NCBI RefSeq assembly: GCF_003018255.1
Contig: NZ_CP027440.1
From: Escherichia coli
GTDB taxonomy: Bacteria; Pseudomonadota; Gammaproteobacteria; Enterobacterales; Enterobacteriaceae
Strand: one strand, 5' to 3'
DNA length: 64,000 nt
Numbering within the stretch: position 1 is the first letter of the stretch; the number at the start of each line of letters is the position of its first letter. Positions 4,031-40,848 of this stretch are shown in pieces. The position numbers and the translations under genes were made by a program. A model generated the notes under the pieces. The model saw nothing but the letters and a program-made list of their open reading frames with translations. It was not told the DNA's origin and made no database searches.

Positions 4031-4753
4031 TTAAAATGGAAAATGGATCAACTCAACGTCATCCGCCGTGACTTTCACCATCGAACCTTCAGTATGCCAG
4101 GCACCCAGCACGACGCGGAAAGCAGGTTGCTGATTGGCGATAAGTTCATGTACTGCCGGGCGATGGGTATGCCCGTGAATCAGCCATTGCACCTGATGTT
4201 TTTCCATCGCACTGACCACCGCGTTTTGGTTAACGTCCATGATCGCCAGCGATTTACTGCTGTTGGCTTCTTTGCTGTTCGCGCGCATTCGCGCGGCAAT
4301 GCGTTTGCGCACAAACAACGGCAGGGCGAGGAATAGCGTTTGCAGCCAGGGTTTGTGGACTTTGGCGCGAAAAGCCTGATAACCGGCGTCATCGGTGCAC
4401 AGCGTGTCGCCATGCATAATCAACACCCGGCGACCATAAAGTTCGAGCACCTTTTCTTCCGGCAATAACGTCATGCCGCTTTCACGGGCAAAGCGTTTGC
4501 CGAGCAGAAAATCACGGTTGCCATGAATGAAATAACAGGGAACGCCGGAATCGGACACCGCTTTGATCGCTGCCGCCATCTGGCGATGGAGTGGGTTGGG
4601 ATCGTCGTCGCCAATCCATGCTTCAAACAGATCGCCAAGAATATACAGCGCGTCGGCCTTGCGGGCTTCCCCCGCTAAAAAACGCAGAAAACCGGCGGTG
4701 ATCGCCGGTTCTTCCGCGCAGAGATGAAGATCTGCAATAAAGAGTGTCGCCAC
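4031..4753 (-). CDS. lpxH: UDP-2,3-diacylglucosamine hydrolase
   Basis: 240-aa [19 protein letters not shown]..., calcineurin-like metallophosphoesterase motifs (DLH, GNRD, GHTH). Confidence 0.95.
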
Positions 4754-12460: not shown

Positions 12461-13351
12461 TTAATACTCAAGGATACTCTGCGCGACGGGCAAATAGCGC
12501 AGAGAGAAATAGAGCGTGTCTTTACCGCAAGAGGAACGTTTCGCTAACAGCGAGGCGATCTCTGCATCCGGTTTCGGTTTCGCTGTAAACGTTTTACCTT
12601 TACCAGCGACAAACAGTTCATAAACAATGCCGCTTGCTGGGGCGGAACTTTGGCAATCGGCGCTGGCCTGTAGATAACGTTCACGCTGTTCAGCGGTCAG
12701 TTTATCCACGCCGCTGCCATCCTGTACCCAGACATTAACACCGGTTGCTTTAACTTGTTCCAGCAGTTGGCGATAGCCATCTGGCGACATGTTTCCGGCG
12801 AAAAAACTACTGATATAAACCGGTTTTGCTGAAACATCGCTAATCAACCGCTGCGCGTTGTTTAACCATGTTAGCAAAGGTTGACGGGCGGCTTCGCTGC
12901 GCCAGTTCAGGTCGTCAATTTCCGCGCTGATGTACCAGCCATCCGGCGTTACGCCAGGCACGGCGCTCCATAATCTGGCTTGCTGGAGATCGGCAGCCAG
13001 CAGGCGATTAAGATAGCTTTCCAGCGCTGCGGAGGACTGTTTCTGGTGTATAAAAAATTCCGGATCGGCGTTCAGCCCGACAATCAGCTTCAGGCCAGCC
13101 TGTTGCGCAGCTGCGGCACGCTTAAACAATAACGCGCGCTGTTCTGGCTGGGTGAATGCATCGCCGTAACGGGTCCATTGCAAAACCAGGGTATCGAAGC
13201 CTTGCAAACGTAACTGACTCATCAGCCCCTGCCACTGGGTATCGGTAACCTGACTATCACGGTTTTGTGGTTGCCAGATAATACCTTTCATCGCAAAGGA
13301 AAAAGGGCTGACCAAAAGCAGTGTCAACAATACGAAAATGAACTTACGCAT
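12461..13351 (-). CDS. ybcH: YbcH family secreted protein of unknown function
   Basis: 296-aa ORF with N-terminal signal peptide, directly downstream of nfrA as in K-12. Confidence 0.8.
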   Translation of the reverse strand: MRKFIFVLLTLLLVSPFSFAMKGIIWQPQNRDSQVTDTQWQGLMSQLRLQGFDTLVLQWTRYGDAFTQPEQRALLFKRAAAAQQAGLKLIVGLNADPEFFIHQKQSSAALESYLNRLLAADLQQARLWSAVPGVTPDGWYISAEIDDLNWRSEAARQPLLTWLNNAQRLISDVSAKPVYISSFFAGNMSPDGYRQLLEQVKATGVNVWVQDGSGVDKLTAEQRERYLQASADCQSSAPASGIVYELFVAGKGKTFTAKPKPDAEIASLLAKRSSCGKDTLYFSLRYLPVAQSILEY

Positions 13352-22503: not shown

Positions 22504-22926
22504 TTATCTAGCAATTTGTATTAAGGGGGTTTCACCCACATGTTTTAATAAACTCATTAACCAGATGGCCTCTTCTCTCGTTCCGGAGTATATTACCTTC
22601 GATTCATTTCTAATAATTCGAAGTGCTTCTTTTGTATCAATCGAAAAAGCCTTACGAATGACTTTTATAGTTTCCATCTGTGATTTTATATTTTCAAGTC
22701 TAACATTCCATAAACCCTCAAAATCAATCAATTGTAGACGAATTTTTTCTGGGGGAAAGCCTATATCATCTGATTCACTACGTAATCCGCAATTATGGCA
22801 TATAATTGATTCATACCATGCGAGTATACCATTGTGACTCGTCTGCCCTATAGCTATAGAACATATTTTTCCACAGCAAGGACACTCAATAGTCGTTTTA
22901 AATTCATCACCAAACACTATAACCAC
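22504..22926 (-). CDS. putative immunity protein for the main Rhs toxin (RhsI-like), Cys-rich zinc-ribbon-like N-terminus
   Basis: 140-aa ORF overlapping the toxin stop; CPCCGKIC ... CHNCG cysteine pairs. Confidence 0.55.
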   Translation of the reverse strand: MVIVFGDEFKTTIECPCCGKICSIAIGQTSHNGILAWYESIICHNCGLRSESDDIGFPPEKIRLQLIDFEGLWNVRLENIKSQMETIKVIRKAFSIDTKEALRIIRNESKVIYSGTREEAIWLMSLLKHVGETPLIQIAR

Positions 22927-23588
22927 CCTCTCATCCGCTTATATCTTCGAATCGTCTCGTAAAATTTCTGTTCCATCTCAGTACCTTTGGGATGATGATC
23001 ATTCAATCCTCGCTTCCACCACCTATGATGTAATTCTTCATGAATAATAACATCTCTTAATGCTGCACGAGACGAAAAACTATTTTTACCAAACTGAGTT
23101 CCTTCCCAAAGTTTAGCAATCCCTGTTCGCATAAACGGATTGTATTGAGGGATATATGTTAGTTTAAGATATGCAAAATCTTCTTTAAGTATGGCTGTAA
23201 TTGCCTTATTTCTGGCTCTGGCCGTAGAACCTGTAACATGACCGAGATCAGAAACATAAGTCTGTGGCCCTCTAGAAAACTCGACTGTTTTATTAATTAT
23301 ACTAGTTATAGCTAATCCCAGCGGATCAACATACCCACACGGATTAGGCACATACCGGTAAGTCTGCTCACCCCCCAGCAACCCCAGCGGATCACTCACC
23401 AGGTACATCCCTGTTTCCGGCTCGTAATACCGGAACCGGTTATAGCACAACCCGGATTCCGCATCCCGCCACTGTCCTGCATACAGCAGGCCGGGGTCGG
23501 GGTCGGCTTCCGGGTCCAGCTCCCCGCGCGGGTCCGGGTAGCCGGTGTCTGCGGGCAGACTGAGTGCCAGCCCCCACAGGCTGGTTTG
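22917..23588 (-). CDS. C-terminal extension of main Rhs protein: PxxxxDPxGL junction plus about 130-aa toxin domain with HExxH motif
   Basis: Same frame as Rhs core, separated by TGA at 23589-23591; translation ...[20 protein letters not shown]...VDPLGL then ...[13 protein letters not shown]... Confidence 0.65.
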   Translation of the reverse strand, partial: [223 protein letters not shown]

Positions 23589-26500
23589 TCACGGTCGCCA
23601 CACGGTTTTACCTTCACTGTTAAAGAGCATCAGCGGACGGCCCGTCAGGTCGCTCACCGCATGATTCGTCCGCGTCACCCACTGCGGGGCCACCGACGGA
23701 TGCGGCTGCCGTACCCGGCTGCACTGCTGGCTTATCAGCTCAAAGCCGTTAAACACCAGGTGCCGTACGCTGTACAGTTTATCATCGCGGTATTCCCGGA
23801 TTTCCGCAATATTGTCGCCGTCCCACAGGTACGTAAAACGGATTTTCTTCCGGTCGCAGCGTTTTTCCGTCCGCCTGCCGCTGGCGTCGTAGCGGTATTC
23901 CCACTGCTCACCCTGTGCGCTGCAATACCCGGTCAGCTGGTCACGGCTGTCCCACCGGAACCGCTCTGTTTCCGGGCGGTAGCCGTCACGGTGTCTGGTG
24001 CGGCTGACCATCCGGCCTGCGGCGTCATAGTCATACTGCGTGTTTCCGGCCTGTTTCAGCCGGTGGCCTCCGGCATACCGCTCAGTCTCTTCACTTATCC
24101 GGTGCCTGCCCGCAGACTGCGCCTTCAGGTAGCCGCAGCTGTCATAGCCATAAGTCTCATCGCCTTCGCCATAGCCCAGCCCGGTGCCTGAGGCTGTCAC
24201 CGCCGTGACCTGGCCGTTCCGGTCCAGCCGGTACTCCCGGCGTGTTTCCCGTCCGTAATCTTCCCGGCTGGTGACACCTGACACGTTACCCGCGCTGTCG
24301 TAACGGTACTCCCGTACCAGTGACGGAACCAGCCCGCCCCATGTGGCTTCTTCCGGAAAAAATCCGGCGCGCTGGCTGACAGGCTGGCCGGCTGCATTCC
24401 AGCCCTGCTCACAGGCAAAACCCCGGTTACTGTGCCGGAGCACTTCACGTCCTGCCTCATCACGGCTGAACGTCAGCGTCTCATCCCCCGGCAGGATAAC
24501 CTCCGTCAGTTCTCCGGCGGCGTTGTAGCGGTAGGTGGTTTTCAGCAGGGATTCATCGGGGTGTCTGTCGCGTTCATCTTCCGGTGGCAGGATACAGCGG
24601 ATGACGGTGTGTTCATCGGGGTAATGGTACTCAATGGCCCGTCGGCCCTGAGTGGTGACATTCACCCGCCCGCGTTCGTCATAGCCGGTGCGCTGTGATG
24701 TGCCGTCCGGGCTGAAGATACCCGTCAGCCTGCCGGATTTGTCATACGCATACTGCGTTTTGCCTTCCGGCGTGATGATTTCTGCCAGGCGGCCTGCGGC
24801 GTCCCGGCTGTAGAGGATGGTTTCCTCCAGGCCGTTAACCCTGGCGGTACACAGGCCATCGGCGTCATAGCGGTAACGCCAGGTCACGCCGCCCCAGTCA
24901 TGCTCTTCCGTCACCCGCCCACAGTTGTCGAGAAGATAACGGTATGACTCACCCTGCGGGTTGATGACTTCTGTCAGTTGCAGCGTGTCTTTATCATAGC
25001 GGTACTGCCAGCGGTGGCCTTCACCGTCCGTTCGCGCCACCGGCAAATCAAACGGGCCGTATTCCATTGTCCAGACAACGCCGTTACCGTCCGTGTACGC
25101 CAGCAGGTTGCCGTGGCGGTCATAGCGGAATCCTTCTGCGCCGGTTCCTGCCCGCTCAAGGCCGCTCAGTTTATGGTGCTGCTGCCACTGCAACCGCACT
25201 GACTGACCGCCGGGGCCGCGCATCTTCACCGGCAGGTCGTGACCACTGTATTCGGTGTGGTGTTCACGGCCCATCACGTCGGTGAGTGTTTCCGGCCGGT
25301 TGTGGTGGTCGTACTCTATGCCCAGACGCCGTTCATCCTGGCGGAATATCCCCGACAGCAGCCCCTGAGCGGTGTACGCCAGCCGGGTCTCTTCGCCCTG
25401 TGGCGATACCAGACTCACCGGCAGGCCGCGTTCATCGCACTGCTGTGTCCACGTCTGCCCGGCAGGGTCGGTGATGTTGCTGAGCAGGCCGCGCTCATCA
25501 TAGCGGTACAACCACACCGCGCCGTCTGCCGCCGTATAACGGCTTAACTGACCGTGTACGGCGTTGTATTCAAATTTCTCCACCCGTCCGGCAGGGGAGT
25601 GGCGGGCCAGCAGGTGATGGAATTCATCCCATTCATACGTGGTGGTGCTGCCGTCCGGCGCTTCTTCCCGCAGAATATTGCCGTCAGGATCATAGTAATA
25701 ACGGTGAATGCCCTTGCCGTCCGTCACGGTGGTGCAGCCGTCACTATAGTCCAGCGTGGCGTTGTAATAGCCGTCCGCCCCGGTGACATTCACGCACCGG
25801 CCCTGTTCATCGTAGGTGAAACGGCTCCACGTCTGGTCGTTATCGGACCAGCGGATGATCCGGTCCGCAGCGTCGTACTCATAAAACAGGTGGTAGTCCA
25901 GCCGCGCATCCGCTTCGGTCAGCCGCCCCCGCGCATCCTGTTCGTAGGTCGCCAGCGTCTGTATGCCGTTATCCGTGCGGTGAATGGCTTTCAGGTAGCC
26001 GCTGGCGTGGTACGTCAGTTTAAGCCGGATCCCGTCGGTGTGACTGACACCCGTGATGCGGTACTGGCTGTCGCGCTCAAACGTGATGCGGTTGCTGGCG
26101 GTGTCGCTCATCCCGCCCAGCATGTACATCCGGTCACCGGGGCTGTGTGCCAGGCGGTCATCATTGGTATCGTCAGTCACCGGGTGGCGCAGGCGCATTC
26201 CCGGAAAGGCGTCATAAAAGAAGCGGCTGCTCAGGGCATCACGGTCGAACAGCTCCAGGTAATCGTCGCGGCGGCGCAGGATATACTGGGCGTGATACGG
26301 GTTAACCGCCGTATCACTGTCTCCGTCGAAGGCAAAGTACAGCGTGGCTCCCTGGCTGATGATATCCACCCGGTTTCCCTGTTCACGCACCCAGGCGTAT
26401 TCGCTCCAGGAGTCGCTCCAGCCCACGCCCGTCAGGCCATGCAGTGGCAGTACAGAACTGTGGAAACGGGTGAAGGAGAGGGGGAGTGTCTGGCCCAGCG

Positions 26501-27728
26501 TAAAGTCGGTACGTTCGTCGCAGTATGCGCCGGTTACCGGATCGACAGGATCTGTTACCCATCTGATGACTTTATTGGCAATACTTTTTAACGACTTACC
26601 TGTTTTCCCCAGCAACGCGCCGAGCTTTGCCCCCAGCAGCTTCCCGCTTTTCCCCAGCAGGTTTCCCAGTTTGCCGAGTTTCGCCAGATTCCCCAGTTTT
26701 CCCAGCAGTCCCGCGGGCGGCAGAAGATAGCTGGCTATCGTTATTCCCCCCAGGATCATTCTCTGCCACGGCGGGAACTCCGGCTGGATATCCAGATAGG
26801 TCACCTGTTCACCGCCAATAAAGACGTCCGGCGAACCTTCCACGATTGCCGCGCTGCACTCCAGTTTGTCGCCCTTGCGCGCGGCAGGCTGATTGTTGAT
26901 AAAGACGTTGCTGCTGCCCTGGGCTATCCTCGGTGGTTTGTTCTCCTTGTCGCAGAGCGCCGTGTCCTCACCGGCTTCCGGGAAATCCACGTCTTTTTTG
27001 ATTTCGCCACGCCCGCCCACCATGGTGGCAAACTCCATTAATACCGGACCGGCGGGAAACAGAAGCGATGCGCCGGCGCTGACGCGATCCATAATACCGG
27101 CATTGCTGTCCGTCAGGGTGATAACAGCGTTCCCCCAGGCCTTCGCCAGTGGCACTGCTTTTTCCGCTGCCGATTCAAGCAGGTCAGTGGCAATATCCCC
27201 CCATGAAGGTTCCCCCTGTGGTGGAGAGGGTATTGCTTCAGTCAGGGGAGGAGGGGGAAGGGTGACGGCGGCCCTGGCTGCTGGCTTACCGTTAATTTTT
27301 ACGTTTTCAGAACCGGTATTGATGGCGCCGTCCGTGTCACAAAAACTGTTTATCCATGACTCAAGCTGGTTCTGTTTCTCCTCCACATAATCACTCGCCT
27401 TATAGCTGGCATACATCAGCGCAGGCACCAGAACCAGCGCATAAGGGCCGGTGGCGCAGGCGGCCATAATCAGGCAACCTTCTGCGATAGTTACTATCGC
27501 CCCCAGCACGGCCCCTGCCAGTGCCCCCAGAAAACTTTTATGCTGAATTTCATCGCCCAGCCTGGCGGCAGGTGGGCCGGACTTCTTTGCTGCCAGCATC
27601 TGTGCAATGGCTTTGTCGTTGGCTGCCCGTTTCATCTGGCTGGCGACCATCGCCTGCTGTGACAGCATTCGCATTGCCAGCGTACCGCCTGCGGTCGCTC
27701 CCTGTGGGCCGCCTGGTCCTTCACTCAT
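23589..27728 (-). CDS. prePAAR/PAAR-domain Rhs repeat protein (T6SS effector core with YD-repeat shell)
   Basis: 1379-aa ORF; prePAAR motif [10 protein letters not shown] near N-terminus, PAAR motif ([14 protein letters not shown]), many YD repeats (YRYD, YEYD, YDxxGR); ORF ends at in-frame TGA before the DPxGL region. Confidence 0.9.
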   Translation of the reverse strand: [1379 protein letters not shown]

Positions 27729-27747: not shown

Positions 27748-28209
27748 TCAGCGCGGCTGGTCCTTTTGGATGTCATTCTCCGGTGGCAACGGGGTGAAGC
27801 TCTTTATCACCTCCAGCAGCATCGTCTTTTGACTGTTCTTCAGGGATAAGGAGGTGCTGAAAGTGAAGGTCAGCAGCGTATCTCCACGCCGCTGGAATAC
27901 GGCTATCTGGTCAATCCGTCCCTGGTTCCCCTCATCTTCCGGACCGTTCCAGGAATAATCCAGCAGCCAGGCCGGGGCCTCTGCCAGAGTGATTTCCCGG
28001 CAGGCATGTTCGGTGTACCCATCAAGTTTGCCCTGGTACAGCGCCAGCGTTTCCTGGTACAGCTCTGGTGTCAGGGTTCCCTGTGGAACGGCTTCGCGGG
28101 TAATGACCAGGTTGATGCCACTGTTATCTGTGGACACCAGGACCTGCATTGACTGATCCTGCCATTGCGATGGCAGCTGAATATGACCTTCATTAAAAGT
28201 GAACTGCAT
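27748..28209 (-). CDS. DUF1795/Eag-family effector chaperone (inferred)
   Basis: 153-aa ORF between vgrG and the prePAAR-Rhs gene; size and position typical of Eag chaperones for prePAAR effectors. Confidence 0.65.
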   Translation of the reverse strand: MQFTFNEGHIQLPSQWQDQSMQVLVSTDNSGINLVITREAVPQGTLTPELYQETLALYQGKLDGYTEHACREITLAEAPAWLLDYSWNGPEDEGNQGRIDQIAVFQRRGDTLLTFTFSTSLSLKNSQKTMLLEVIKSFTPLPPENDIQKDQPR

Positions 28210-28236: not shown

Positions 28237-30138
28237 TCAGTTGATGAAAACAGAACCGCCCACGATGGTGATGCCATCCTTCGACAGCCTGATTACCGTC
28301 GATTCCCCGACCTGTAGCTGAATGCCATCCGGCGTCAGCGCAATTTTGCTTTCCTCCACGGCCAGCATAATTTGCTTAATTGCCGTATAAGCCTGTATAC
28401 CGTCGCCTTCGCCACCATTGTTTACAGCGTCAACATGCACTGAACCGGCAATCGTGCCTCTGTCCTGAAAAACATCCTCAGATAAAGACCCTTTTAGTAC
28501 GCCTGTGATTTTGTGGCCTTTTTCCACCGTAAGAAGGCGGTTACCTTCCTGGATCATGACCGTCTGGTCATTTTTTACGGTTTCGCGGTGATCGTGTTTT
28601 ACGGTGGTGGTACGGTCGTTGAGTACCTCGGTATCCATGTTCTTCTGGGCGTGGATGTAGACCTGTTCTTTCCCTGTCGCATCGTCAAACTTCAGCTCGT
28701 TAAACCCGCTGCCCATATATGTTTTGGAGCGGATGGTCATCTGCGTCTTCGTTCCCGGCAGGCTGCCCGGCGAGCGGTTATCTTCGTGGTAGGTGCGCCC
28801 CATAATGATCGGCTGGTCCGGATCGCCGTTGAGGAAGTCCACAATCACCTCCTGACCCACGCGCGGTATCGCCAGGTTGCCAAATCCCGGCCCCGCCCAC
28901 GCCTGCGCCACCCGTATCCAGCACGAACTGTCCTGATTGGCCGGGTTATAGCGGTCCCAGTTGAATTTCACCCGCACCCGGCCATGCTCGTCGCAGAAGA
29001 TTTCCTCTCCCGCAGGCCCCGTCACGACGGCGCTCTGCGGACCGTCCACTGACGGCTTTGGCTTCGGCTGAGGTCGCCACGTCCGGTCTGCCGGTATTAC
29101 CGCAAAGTGGTTATTCAGCGTGGTACCTGACCCCCTGCGTCCCGGCACCGCCTGCGGCTGTTCGCCGTGCAGTTCGCTCGCCACCACCTGCCATTCCCGG
29201 TTCAGGTTCGCCTGCGGATGCTCCGTCAGCACAATTCGCCGTCCAGGCCATATCTCCGGCGAGCGGCTCATTCCCCGCGCGGTTTCGGCGTTGTTTCGCC
29301 AGCCGTCCATCTGCCAGCGGGCAAAGTTCTGCCCGTGGGCGCTCTTGAAACGCCCGGGCCAGTCATACACTTCATACTGTGTGCGCTGGTAATCCTGATG
29401 CTGGCCTTCCTGGTCAAAACGTCCGGCCCAGCCGGGGCGTTTAAAGGTGTAGTCTTTGGTCACCACAGAGGAAGGACGGATTTGTGCGCTGTAGCGGAAC
29501 TGGCTGATGCAGAGGGTGCTCACCTCGGTACGGGTGTTCGGGTTCCAGGGGATTTCAAAGGATTCCGGCAGATAGCGGACCGTGTCGCACAGCACCAGAC
29601 TCTGGTCGGTACTTTTCTGCGCGTGCTCCTCATAGAAGAAGATGCCTTCCTCCGCTGCTATCCGGCAGAGAAAGTCGTAATCGGTTTCACCGTACTGGAC
29701 ACAAAACTCACGGGAAGGATGCGGCTCACTGAACAGCGGGCTCCACTCCGTGACGTCATTTTCCTGCAGTATGGTGCCGAGGATGCTTCTGATGTCCTCG
29801 TTCTGGAATATACGGAAGTTCTGACGCAGTCCTGCCCGCCACAGCGGCGGGCGCACCTTCATGCTGTACAGCATCTGGTTTTTGTCGTTCTCCCCGAGTT
29901 CAAACCAGGTCACCACGCCTTTCACCCGGCGCTGTACGTCATCGCCCTGCCATACCGTCAGGTAGGCCATTTTGTCCAGCACCTGCGCAAATTCAAGGGA
30001 GAGAAACTGCTGACTGACCAGAGAAAGGTCAAGGGAAAAAAGTGAAGAGAGTGACTGGGTGAGATGAAAGGAGACCACCGCAAAAGCGTCCGGTGGCAGG
30101 CCGTCCACTTCCAGTGTGAAACGTAATCCGGTTGACAT
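28237..30138 (-). CDS. vgrG: type VI secretion spike protein VgrG
   Basis: 633-aa ORF starting MSTGLRFTLEVDGLPPDAFAVVSF... with gp27/gp5-like regions and C-terminal beta-helix repeats. Confidence 0.9.
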   Translation of the reverse strand: MSTGLRFTLEVDGLPPDAFAVVSFHLTQSLSSLFSLDLSLVSQQFLSLEFAQVLDKMAYLTVWQGDDVQRRVKGVVTWFELGENDKNQMLYSMKVRPPLWRAGLRQNFRIFQNEDIRSILGTILQENDVTEWSPLFSEPHPSREFCVQYGETDYDFLCRIAAEEGIFFYEEHAQKSTDQSLVLCDTVRYLPESFEIPWNPNTRTEVSTLCISQFRYSAQIRPSSVVTKDYTFKRPGWAGRFDQEGQHQDYQRTQYEVYDWPGRFKSAHGQNFARWQMDGWRNNAETARGMSRSPEIWPGRRIVLTEHPQANLNREWQVVASELHGEQPQAVPGRRGSGTTLNNHFAVIPADRTWRPQPKPKPSVDGPQSAVVTGPAGEEIFCDEHGRVRVKFNWDRYNPANQDSSCWIRVAQAWAGPGFGNLAIPRVGQEVIVDFLNGDPDQPIIMGRTYHEDNRSPGSLPGTKTQMTIRSKTYMGSGFNELKFDDATGKEQVYIHAQKNMDTEVLNDRTTTVKHDHRETVKNDQTVMIQEGNRLLTVEKGHKITGVLKGSLSEDVFQDRGTIAGSVHVDAVNNGGEGDGIQAYTAIKQIMLAVEESKIALTPDGIQLQVGESTVIRLSKDGITIVGGSVFIN

Positions 30139-30881
30139 AGCAACCTCCGTGAAAATGAATAATAATCCGCATATATTGCATGTACAACATGTCGGGTAAT
30201 GAGATAAGCGGGCCGGCTTCAGGCGTTACCGGGGAATATCAGAAAAGTGTCATGGTTATGTGATGATTTTGTCCGGGATTTTACTTCAGAGAAACGGGGG
30301 GCTGTTGACTCAACAAAATAATCACAAACTCAACTGACGGGTTCACGATGTTATTAAGGACAGGCTCGTATATTACATCGAGTAACAAAAAAACACCTGA
30401 TATGCAAAGTCAAACCAATATTTGTAATGTCTTTTTATTCACAATAATAAATAACTCAATAAACATTATTGAAATGAATGATGGTTTGTATAAGGAATAT
30501 ACGCTACCGCCCCACCCTGATAACATGATCTGCACATTGCTATCTTAACGTCGTTAGACGCTGGCTTAATAGTGAATATTTTAAATTAGGAATTTATCAA
30601 GTTCACTTGATAAATAGACCGCGTGAATAATATAGAGATTAATGATGCCTGACTGCGCTTTATATTATAGCCGATTCTTTTATAGTGATGAAAATTTAGT
30701 AATAGCATTGTGCTCTACAATTGGTAGAAACACGAATTTAATTAAATTGCATATCTAAATATCTCGTAAATATCCGAAAATGAATAACCTTCGATTTCAG
30801 ACGACCAATAAGGTCTTCCCTGTTTTATTGATAAATAATAACAGAAGGCGATACATCACTCTTTGAGTTTGAACTAACTAA

Positions 30882-32330
30882 TTAACCTTTCTCCGGTAGT
30901 TTGATCATAAACCTTGTCCCCCGAGCATCTGACGTTACTGCAACCGTGCCTTTATGCGCGACAACAATCGATTTCACTATCGCCAGGCCAATACCGCTAC
31001 CTTCGCCTTTTCGCTGACGGGAGGGGTCAACGCGATAGAAACGGTCAAACAATCGCGGTAAGTGCTCGGGCGCAATGGGCGTACCGGGGTTTTCGACGGT
31101 AACTTGCACCAGGTGATCGACCGTCTGGCAGCGCACGACAATTGTCTCTCCGGTTGGCGTATAACGCAGGGCATTAGAAAGCAGGTTGCTTAACGCCCGA
31201 CGCAGCATCAGCGGATCGCCCGCAACCTGACACTCGTCGCCAACAAACCGCAGCTCCACGCCGCGATCTTCTGCTAACGCCTCGAAAAAATCGAACACTT
31301 TGCCGACTTCATCCGCCAGGTTGAGCATTTTCTTTTCGGGGATTAGCTGGTTGTTATCGGCCTGAGCGAGAAACAGCATATCGCTGACCATTTTCGCCAT
31401 TCGCGTCAGCTCTTCGAGATTAGAGTAGTGCACATCTTCCAGCTCCTTCTGGCTGCGCGACTGGCTGAGGGCGATTTCCGTTTGCGTAATGAGATTAGTA
31501 ATAGGTGTGCGAATTTCGTGGGCGATATCCGCTGAGAAATTGGACTGGCGGGTAAAGACATCCTCAATACGCTCGATCATATGGTTGAACGACAGTACCA
31601 GCTGTTCCAGCTCAATGGGCACGGTCTGCGGGTCAAGGCGAACGTCGAGATCTTTCGAGGTAATGTTCTGGATTTGACGGCTGACGCTGCGGATCGGCGC
31701 GTGACCTTTATGTACCGCCAACAGCACGATAAAGACGATCAGGATGCTGATTACCGATGCGGTCATAATAAGTTTATTCATCAAATCATTTATGTAATGA
31801 AGATGAAAATCGATCGAAAGCGCAATGTAGAGCGTATAAATCGGTTTGCCGTCCACCAGTGGGCCAACCGGCAAGCTAATCATCCGCCAGTTGCTGTGTT
31901 CCATATGCCCGTGACCGTGGCCCGGCATCATCATCGTCGGGCCGGAAAGGAGATACACCTCGCCGCCCTGCGCGTCTTTATCGGGTATGGCGTCACGCGT
32001 AAACTCGCGGATATCCGGCGCTCCGGGGGAGTGATACACCGTTTTACCGTGGCTATTTGCCAGGGAGATCAACACATTGGAATAACCACTGACGATATCT
32101 TCCAGCGTCATTAAGCGTCGGGCTTGCGTTTCGTCAGGGTGATTAAGTACCCGTTCAAGGGTGGCGCTAATCTCCTTTAAATCATTAATATCCTGCTCGG
32201 CAAAATGCACTTTTACCGAGTGGATCATGATCCATGCAAAGGCGAAAAACGCCGCGATGGTGGCGAGGCTGATAAAAAAGGTCAGGCGGGTTGCCAGCGA
32301 AAACGGGCGCTGAAATGGCTTACTGACCAT
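30882..32330 (-). CDS. cusS: copper/silver-sensing histidine kinase
   Basis: 482-aa ORF with two TM segments, periplasmic domain, HisKA (H-box [10 protein letters not shown]) and ATPase domains. Confidence 0.93.
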
Positions 32331-33068: not shown

Positions 33069-33090
33069 AAAATGACAATTTTGTCATTTT
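33069..33090. promoter_or_regulatory. CusR box in the divergent cusR-cusC intergenic region
   Basis: Perfect palindrome aaaatgacaattttgtcatttt. Confidence 0.75.
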
Positions 33091-40770: not shown

Positions 40771-40812
40771 GGCATTCGCGCCGTATCCGACAAAATGATG
40801 TCAACCATCCGA

Positions 40813-40848
40813 AACCGCTCTCATCCATTCGATGAGAGCGGTTTTTTT
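40813..40848 (+). terminator. intrinsic terminator between convergent pheP and ybdG
   Basis: Hairpin aaccgctctcatc/gatgagagcggtt followed by T run. Confidence 0.75.

Follow-up and report, generated by a model that had tools for sequence, protein, structure and literature searches.

The window (the whole stretch of 64,000 nucleotides of Escherichia coli DNA that was analyzed) contains an orphan vgrG island next to the cus genes in the order cusR, cusS, gap, vgrG, EagR-type gene, and PAAR-Rhs gene, with cusS and vgrG co-directional on the minus strand (Table 1). Past the PAAR-Rhs gene, orphan rhs-CT/immunity fragments and an ISAs1 element extend leftwards to approximately position 12600, up to nfrB. 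A papain-fold toxin domain gene, a symE fragment, the ISAs1 transposase, and small putative immunity genes were noted at 22923-27728 and leftwards. No regulator gene is encoded among the island genes. An earlier note made from the sequence had placed an AT-rich, non-coding region of roughly 740 bp upstream of vgrG, and this description is accurate: the gap at 30139-30881 is 743 bp long and has a GC content of 34.9% versus 50.1% across the window. Its sequence is 100% identical to that of E. coli strain DETEC-S792. The whole 743-bp gap belongs to the island, because the homology of the island-free K-12 sequence begins only at approximately 30895, within the end of cusS. Two small ORFs in the gap, one on the minus strand (30586-30708, 40 aa) and one on the plus strand (30348-30548, 66 aa), were rejected as genes; their products are of low complexity and their frames are broken by indels of 3, 11, and 17 nt between alleles.

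The 22-mer tttatcaagttcacttgataaa was found at exactly the positions previously given for it, 30593-30614. It is arranged around a 2-bp center as had been described, but the arms are not 9 bp long: the interval 30593-30614 is made up of 10+2+10 bp, and the maximal arms are 11 bp. The palindrome is located 454-477 bp upstream of the vgrG ATG and 267 bp downstream of the cusS stop codon; among perfect short-loop inverted repeats of the window, only the one at 40812-40844 is longer. When the 743-bp gap was shuffled 2,000 times with dinucleotide composition preserved, 0.25% of the shuffles contained arms of 11 bp or more and 3% contained arms of 9 bp or more. Over the 64-kb window, approximately 0.16 such repeats were expected from local composition and 2 are present. 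Within the gap alone the palindrome is thus unlikely; allowing for the look-elsewhere effect, it is no more than mildly surprising. Its length, with 11-bp perfect arms here and 10 of 11 arm pairs in the common allele, falls within the 16-24 bp range of operators. The dyad had no match elsewhere in the 64-kb window at up to 3 mismatches.

Table 1. Coordinates of genes and sequence features at the cusS-vgrG locus
Feature	Position	Strand	Remarks
prePAAR-PAAR-Rhs effector gene	23589..27728	-	RefSeq: pseudogene, internal stop in this strain
DcrB/DUF1795 (EagR-type) chaperone gene	27748..28209	-	
vgrG	28237..30138	-	633 aa; Phage_GPD, Phage_base_V, and Gp5_trimer_C domains
Putative long vgrG 5' leader	30139..30569	-	432 nt with the TSS base; ~90% identical to rhsE-locus paralog
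Pho-box-like TATCAGAAAAGTGTCATG	30237..30254	+	one base off the K-12 rhsE-upstream motif; ~100 bp upstream of vgrG ATG
29-nt stretch CCACCCTGATAACATGATCTGCACATTGC	30512..30540	.	invariant in seven aligned sequences (cusS and rhsE loci)
Putative transcription start, A	30570	-	homologous to EDL933 TSS 675571(-); measured in ortholog
Candidate -10 hexamer TAAAAT	30578..30583	-	5/6 to TATAAT; at -13..-8, ends 7 nt before putative TSS
Perfect inverted repeat ATTTATCAAGT-TC-ACTTGATAAAT	30592..30615	.	11-bp arms, 2-nt center
Palindrome arms	30592..30602 and 30605..30615	.	ATTTATCAAGT and ACTTGATAAAT; center TC
Putative -35-like hexamer GTGAAC	30601..30606	-	3/6 to TTGACA; 17 nt upstream of -10
Derived G	30601	.	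A in all other alleles and paralog; single transition perfects dyad
cusS	30882..32330	-	co-directional with vgrG

Allelic variation and distribution of the dyad

Of 5,426 complete E. coli genomes, 3,833 carried homologs of the gap, some of them at as many as three places, and the homologous loci identified were the cusS locus and the rhsE/yncH locus. Divergent alleles at the cusS locus are approximately 79% identical across the gap, and the rhsE/yncH-locus copy is approximately 90% identical, over 30139 to approximately 30616 only. Genomes were counted with a 32-nt query around the palindrome, which gave 2,735 genomes with the cusS-locus version. Three of these (DETEC-S792, JNE23-011, and JNE112863) are identical to the window (TTTATCAAGTTCACTTGATAAA, 11/11 arm pairs). 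A single difference characterizes 2,357 genomes, with A at 30601 in every sequence examined (TTTATCAAATTCACTTGATAAA, 10/11), and two or three differences occur in the remaining 375, as in the O157 sequence ending in ACTTTATAAA (9/11). The rhsE-locus paralog retains 7/11 arm pairs (TTTATTAAATTCACCTGATGAA). Because A occupies position 30601 in every other allele and in the paralog, the G of the window is the derived base; read on the minus strand, the change falls at the final base of the -35-like hexamer and converts GTGAAT to GTGAAC.

A metagenome scan made from the invariant flank recovered 54 copies with 10/11 pairs, 1 of the O157 type, 1 perfect copy, and 51 of the rhsE type. Compensatory changes in the arms were absent from the aligned genome alleles and from the approximately 107 homologous metagenome copies. 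The palindrome is therefore perfect in this window, as the earlier note had it, but not as a general trait of the locus, given that only 3 of 2,735 genomes have the perfect form, which stems from the A-to-G change at 30601; the perfect symmetry is a private polymorphism. Nor is the palindrome preserved in homologous vgrG upstream regions, where 10/11, 9/11, or 7/11 arm pairs are found with no compensatory changes.

Several minor observations bear on the history of this segment. Four clustered transitions within 22 nt (30601 A to G; 30619, 30620, and 30622 each T to C) set the 3-genome sub-allele apart from its 85 nearest relatives, and the cluster at 30601-30622 may be a small recombination patch or a localized mutational event. 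The proximal gap (30139-30616) is closer to the rhsE-locus paralog (~90%) than to the common HS-type allele at its own locus (~77%), a pattern suggestive of gene conversion between the orphan vgrG islands of these two loci. Homology between the cusS and rhsE/yncH islands ends to the right of the palindrome, at approximately 30616-30650 and within about 35 bp of it. At the rhsE locus of strain SW070917, an IS1 insertion interrupts the right arm of the palindrome copy (approximately 4070-4083 of that locus), and in a second strain IS1 lies in or just past the right arm (6721 of that locus). Since IS1 insertions occur there in two strains, the AT-rich module edge is an IS1 target.

Recurrence of the motif upstream of other vgrG or T6SS operons had been put forward as a check on the palindrome; neither the 79 vgrG loci compared nor the main T6SS cluster of O157 Sakai showed it. 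The 79 loci come from other genera (Citrobacter, Enterobacter, Lelliottia, Serratia, Photorhabdus, Vibrio, and others), and upstream of their vgrG genes there is neither a homologous block nor a dyad within 4 mismatches; the dyad was likewise absent from the Sakai cluster at up to 4 mismatches. Within the 5,426 E. coli genomes, the 32-nt BLAST (roughly at least 90% identity) detected no locus besides the cusS-vgrG site. Judged from these searches, the dyad element appears to be specific to E. coli. A link to phage operators was also considered and rejected, as the 8 exact pattern matches in viral contigs were all in unrelated AT-rich sequence.

The predicted vgrG promoter, its leader, and the nucleoid context

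Transcription start sites for the orthologous gap are available from Cappable-seq of strain EDL933 (Zehentner et al. 2023, PMC10469882, Table S10), in which four TSSs are positioned between vgrG1 (z0707) and cusS. The only one on the minus strand, in the vgrG sense, is 675571(-), which was labelled "orphan" on account of its distance of more than 250 bp from vgrG, cleared the reproducibility filters of the study, and was differentially regulated between media in stationary phase with an FDR of 0.0014 (PMC10469882). The homolog of the palindrome in EDL933 lies at 675594-675615, which makes TSS 675571(-) equivalent to window position 30570. The same start is probably used in the present strain, and would drive vgrG, by analogy with EDL933. 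The other three TSSs of the gap in EDL933 (NZ_CP008957.1) are on the plus strand, at 675202, 675305 (approximately window position 30288), and 675709 (PMC10469882), and are antisense to the putative vgrG leader or to the 3' end of cusS; they suggest pervasive bidirectional initiation in the AT-rich DNA of the gap.

On the minus strand, the sequence leading to the putative start reads ...TATTTATCAAGTGAACTTGATAAATTCCTAATT-TAAAAT-ATTCACT-A(+1). Two features of a core promoter were seen, namely an ortholog-mapped start 5-8 nt past the -10 hexamer (here 7 nt) and a -10 hexamer with A at position 2 and T at position 6. TAAAAT is the same in the four cusS-locus alleles compared and is TGAAAT in the rhsE paralog. 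The -35-like hexamer, GTGAAT in most strains and GTGAAC here, is a weak match at 17-bp spacing, and a consensus promoter scan made no call at the 30570 promoter. The palindrome spans -22 to -45 relative to the putative start, with its center at -33.5, and so covers the -35 hexamer and the spacer. Given one TSS in about 600 bp, a 24-bp element would overlap its -10 to -50 zone by chance with a probability of roughly 0.1.

A conservation profile was compiled from four cusS-locus alleles and two rhsE-locus copies. Conservation in the distal gap peaks at 30499-30547 and at 30568-30607. In the second block, at least 95% invariance is retained between alleles whose overall identity is only approximately 79%; because this block coincides with +3 to -37 of the predicted promoter, it is regarded as the promoter footprint. 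The left arm of the palindrome lies within this peak and, with its adjacent bases, inside the best-conserved DNA of the distal gap; the right arm (-35 to -45) lies on the decaying edge of the peak and is better conserved than the DNA further upstream. The predicted leader has a length of 432 nt here versus 405 nt in EDL933. Nowhere is the gap more conserved than in the 29-nt invariant stretch at +31 to +59 of this leader, which holds a Dam GATC site at 30527-30530. An alignment of six sequences gave no convincing covariation for a conserved RNA structure in the 432-nt leader.

Two other candidate promoters were set aside. The predicted minus-strand promoter TTATCA-16-TATATT (30523-30496) was rejected as the main promoter, no TSS having been mapped at the equivalent EDL933 position. 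For the K-12 promoter TTGACT-17-TATTAC proposed in PMC3946193, which corresponds to approximately 30413, the spacer is 3 nt longer here and the -10 hexamer becomes TGTTAC.

The K-12 paralog of the leader is bound by H-NS and has a weak PhoB ChIP-seq peak with the motif TATCAGAAAAATGTCATG (PMC10294691 Table 1). The K-12 yncH-rhsE spacer also binds sigma-70 holoenzyme in vitro and was flagged "HNS" (PMC3946193), and the T6SS of EHEC is repressed by H-NS (PMC5363993). By analogy with the K-12 paralog, H-NS probably covers the cusS-locus copy as well. When the gap was scanned with the H-NS motif tCGATAAATT (PMC2094087), matches were found in the palindrome arms (TTGATAAATT, 9/10; TTGATAAATA, 8/10) and at 30828-30837. 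Three matches versus 2.2 expected in shuffled sequence (p=0.38) do not constitute an enrichment, and because such matches are no commoner than in shuffles, the resemblance of the arms to the motif adds nothing beyond AT-richness. This third match is an exact copy of the right-arm sequence TTGATAAATA, 45 bp from the cusS stop codon, and is probably a chance occurrence in AT-rich DNA.

Interpretations of the palindrome

The site is an ordinary candidate control element and not a demonstrated regulator-binding site. It is an even call that the palindrome is core-promoter DNA of the orphan vgrG-eagR-rhs operon, located in an H-NS-silenced, AT-rich leader, and that its symmetry is nearly incidental. 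Transcription towards vgrG would then start at approximately 30570 on the minus strand from a good -10 hexamer (TAAAAT, 30583-30578) and a weak -35 hexamer (GTGAAC, 30606-30601). The left arm would provide the spacer and the edge of the -35 hexamer, the center and the first bases of the right arm would complete the hexamer, and the remaining right arm would cover about -38 to -45. Such a promoter would lie in a horizontally acquired segment of 35% GC, of the kind that H-NS coats and silences, and would feed the 432-nt leader. Its sequence would be conserved because it is promoter DNA, and the dyad, 10/11 in most E. coli, would have become perfect through the private A-to-G change in a strain in which rhs is already a pseudogene. 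If the unit shared between the islands is the transcription unit, the edge of homology falls just upstream of the promoter, as expected. Against the promoter explanation, the TSS was measured in EDL933 and AT-rich DNA gives many spurious starts; furthermore, the 10/11 dyad of approximately 2,400 genomes exceeds most genuine operators in its symmetry.

The earlier note had expected a regulator of the effector island to bind here, an expectation that holds insofar as the palindrome lies in regulatory DNA, over the -35 region of an ortholog-mapped promoter, and that fails on the unconserved symmetry, the lack of recurrence, and the lack of a regulator in the island. It is possible, though doubtful, that a dimeric transcription factor encoded elsewhere binds the dyad, occludes the -35 region across -22 to -45, and represses vgrG-eagR-rhs; action of the same factor as an anti-silencer or activator is less likely. 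A dyad of 10/11 to 11/11 pairs with a 2-bp center occurs in approximately 2,700 genomes and sits over the -35 region and spacer of a mapped TSS, the position where a repressor would bind. The shuffles of the gap (P of 0.0025 for arms of at least 11 bp and 0.03 for at least 9 bp) and the greater conservation of the right arm relative to the DNA beyond it point the same way. In EHEC, replacement of the vgrG1 promoter still yielded no VgrG1 or RhsF, and negative control was suspected, with a post-transcriptional mechanism suggested (PMC13141884, discussion). Weighing against an operator, the arms show no compensatory substitutions and decay to 9/11 in O157 and 7/11 at the rhsE locus; no second copy of the motif was detected in E. 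coli genomes (32-nt BLAST), the Sakai T6SS cluster, or the 79 vgrG upstream regions of other genera; the island is without a regulator gene; and promoter function by itself accounts for the conservation of the left arm. A comparison by eye with operator consensus sequences found no convincing fit to CusR, FNR (TTGAT-N4-ATCAA), IHF (WATCAANNNNTTR), NarL (7-2-7), Fur, SlyA (9/12), or the RcsB half-site, and the lack of a match to CusR, FNR, and IHF in particular argues against an operator. A search of the literature found no published protein binding at the dyad. A broader proposal, in which the dyad would be the operator of a chromosomal repressor, H-NS co-silencer, or anti-silencer that gates orphan vgrG-rhs island promoters, is considered unlikely. 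Such a gating operator would help to explain why VgrG1 and RhsF cannot be expressed in vitro in EHEC, although that failure followed a promoter swap, and the private A-to-G change in DETEC-S792-type strains would then make a tighter, perfectly symmetric operator.

It is improbable that the palindrome arose by chance and has no function, the overlap with the EDL933 TSS being a coincidence in AT-rich foreign DNA. In its ancestral form the palindrome amounts to a perfect repeat of 9 bp around a 6-nt spacer, of a kind present in 3% of gap shuffles and estimated at more than 100 per genome; its perfection comes from a private SNP, four TSSs on both strands fall within 593 bp, and the same 22-mer pattern occurs in unrelated AT-rich viral contigs. 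A purely accidental origin is countered by the 40-nt near-invariant block comprising the TSS, the -10 hexamer, and the left arm in alleles with an overall identity of only about 79%, and by a TSS that is reproducible by the filters of its study and regulated by growth condition. A structural role, either as an RNA hairpin that ends read-through from cusRS (a terminator or stabilizer) or as a DNA cruciform or recombination joint at the module edge, is highly improbable. No intrinsic terminator is predicted between the co-directional cusS and vgrG, and the hairpin of this strain folds at -10 kcal/mol (z = -4.7); its stem, however, is A/U-rich and is not followed by a U-tract in either orientation, the hairpin of the common allele is weaker at -5.8 kcal/mol (z = -2.3), and there is no Rfam match. 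An intrinsic terminator of cusS was rejected on the same grounds, with none predicted at 30000-31000 and an A/U-rich stem lacking a U run. The Rfam 15 scan of that interval at a permissive E-value returned only two sub-threshold chance matches, at 30763-30816. A recombination joint would fit the end of inter-island homology within approximately 35 bp of the dyad and the IS1 in the right arm of the SW070917 rhsE-locus copy, but flanking direct repeats and a recombinase are absent and the upstream end of a promoter would account for the homology edge equally well.

The palindrome itself adds little, being a routine candidate cis-element whose eye-catching perfect symmetry is a strain-private polymorphism. 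The likely promoter at approximately 30570, the conserved leader of about 430 nt, and the promoter-overlapping dyad provide concrete sites to mutate, and they connect an "orphan" Cappable-seq TSS and a long, conserved leader with the orphan vgrG-rhs islands of E. coli, whose regulation is poorly understood. The T6SSs of EHEC and other E. coli are silent in vitro, and control of the vgrG1/RhsF island was called unknown by the authors of PMC13141884.

Comparison with known systems and neighboring repeats

The locus resembles H-NS-silenced T6SS/Rhs loci of E. coli in its AT-rich (35% GC) acquired upstream region and in its 90%-identical K-12 paralog, which is H-NS-bound; it differs in that H-NS motifs are not enriched in the gap (p=0.38), and H-NS needs no dyad. 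In the sci1 T6SS promoter of EAEC, Brunet et al. reportedly described in 2011 Fur boxes with Dam sites overlapping the promoter. The present locus likewise has a symmetric AT-rich element over the -35 region and spacer of a T6SS-related promoter and a conserved GATC nearby (30527-30530), but the element does not resemble a Fur box (GATAATGATAATCATTATC), and the GATC is approximately 40 nt downstream of the TSS and outside the dyad.

The gap was also compared with h3R of EHEC, a 209-bp segment between hcp3 and vgrG3 that has a GC-rich terminator and limits VgrG expression (PMC13141884). Both would be regulatory non-coding segments directly upstream of an E. coli vgrG, but they are not homologous: by BLAST against the Sakai hcp-vgrG region, the gap aligns only at the 5' coding end of vgrG and over 11 nt with the ribosome-binding site. 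The gap was therefore rejected as an h3R-like leader of the vgrG3 type, homology being absent beyond the vgrG 5' end and ribosome-binding region.

Two further inverted repeats were observed in the window. The cusR-cusC divergent promoter region contains a perfect palindrome with 10-bp arms and a 2-bp center (AAAATGACAATTTTGTCATTTT, 33069-33090), which is presumably the CusR box. Like the vgrG dyad, 2.5 kb away, it is a perfect dyad with a 2-bp center in a promoter region, next to cusRS, but its half-sites are unrelated, agreeing at about 3 of 10 positions by eye. The longest perfect inverted repeat of the window (40812-40844, 14-bp arms, AAACCGCTCTCATCCATTCGATGAGAGCGGTTT) is situated between the convergent genes pheP and ybdG and looks like a bidirectional intrinsic terminator.
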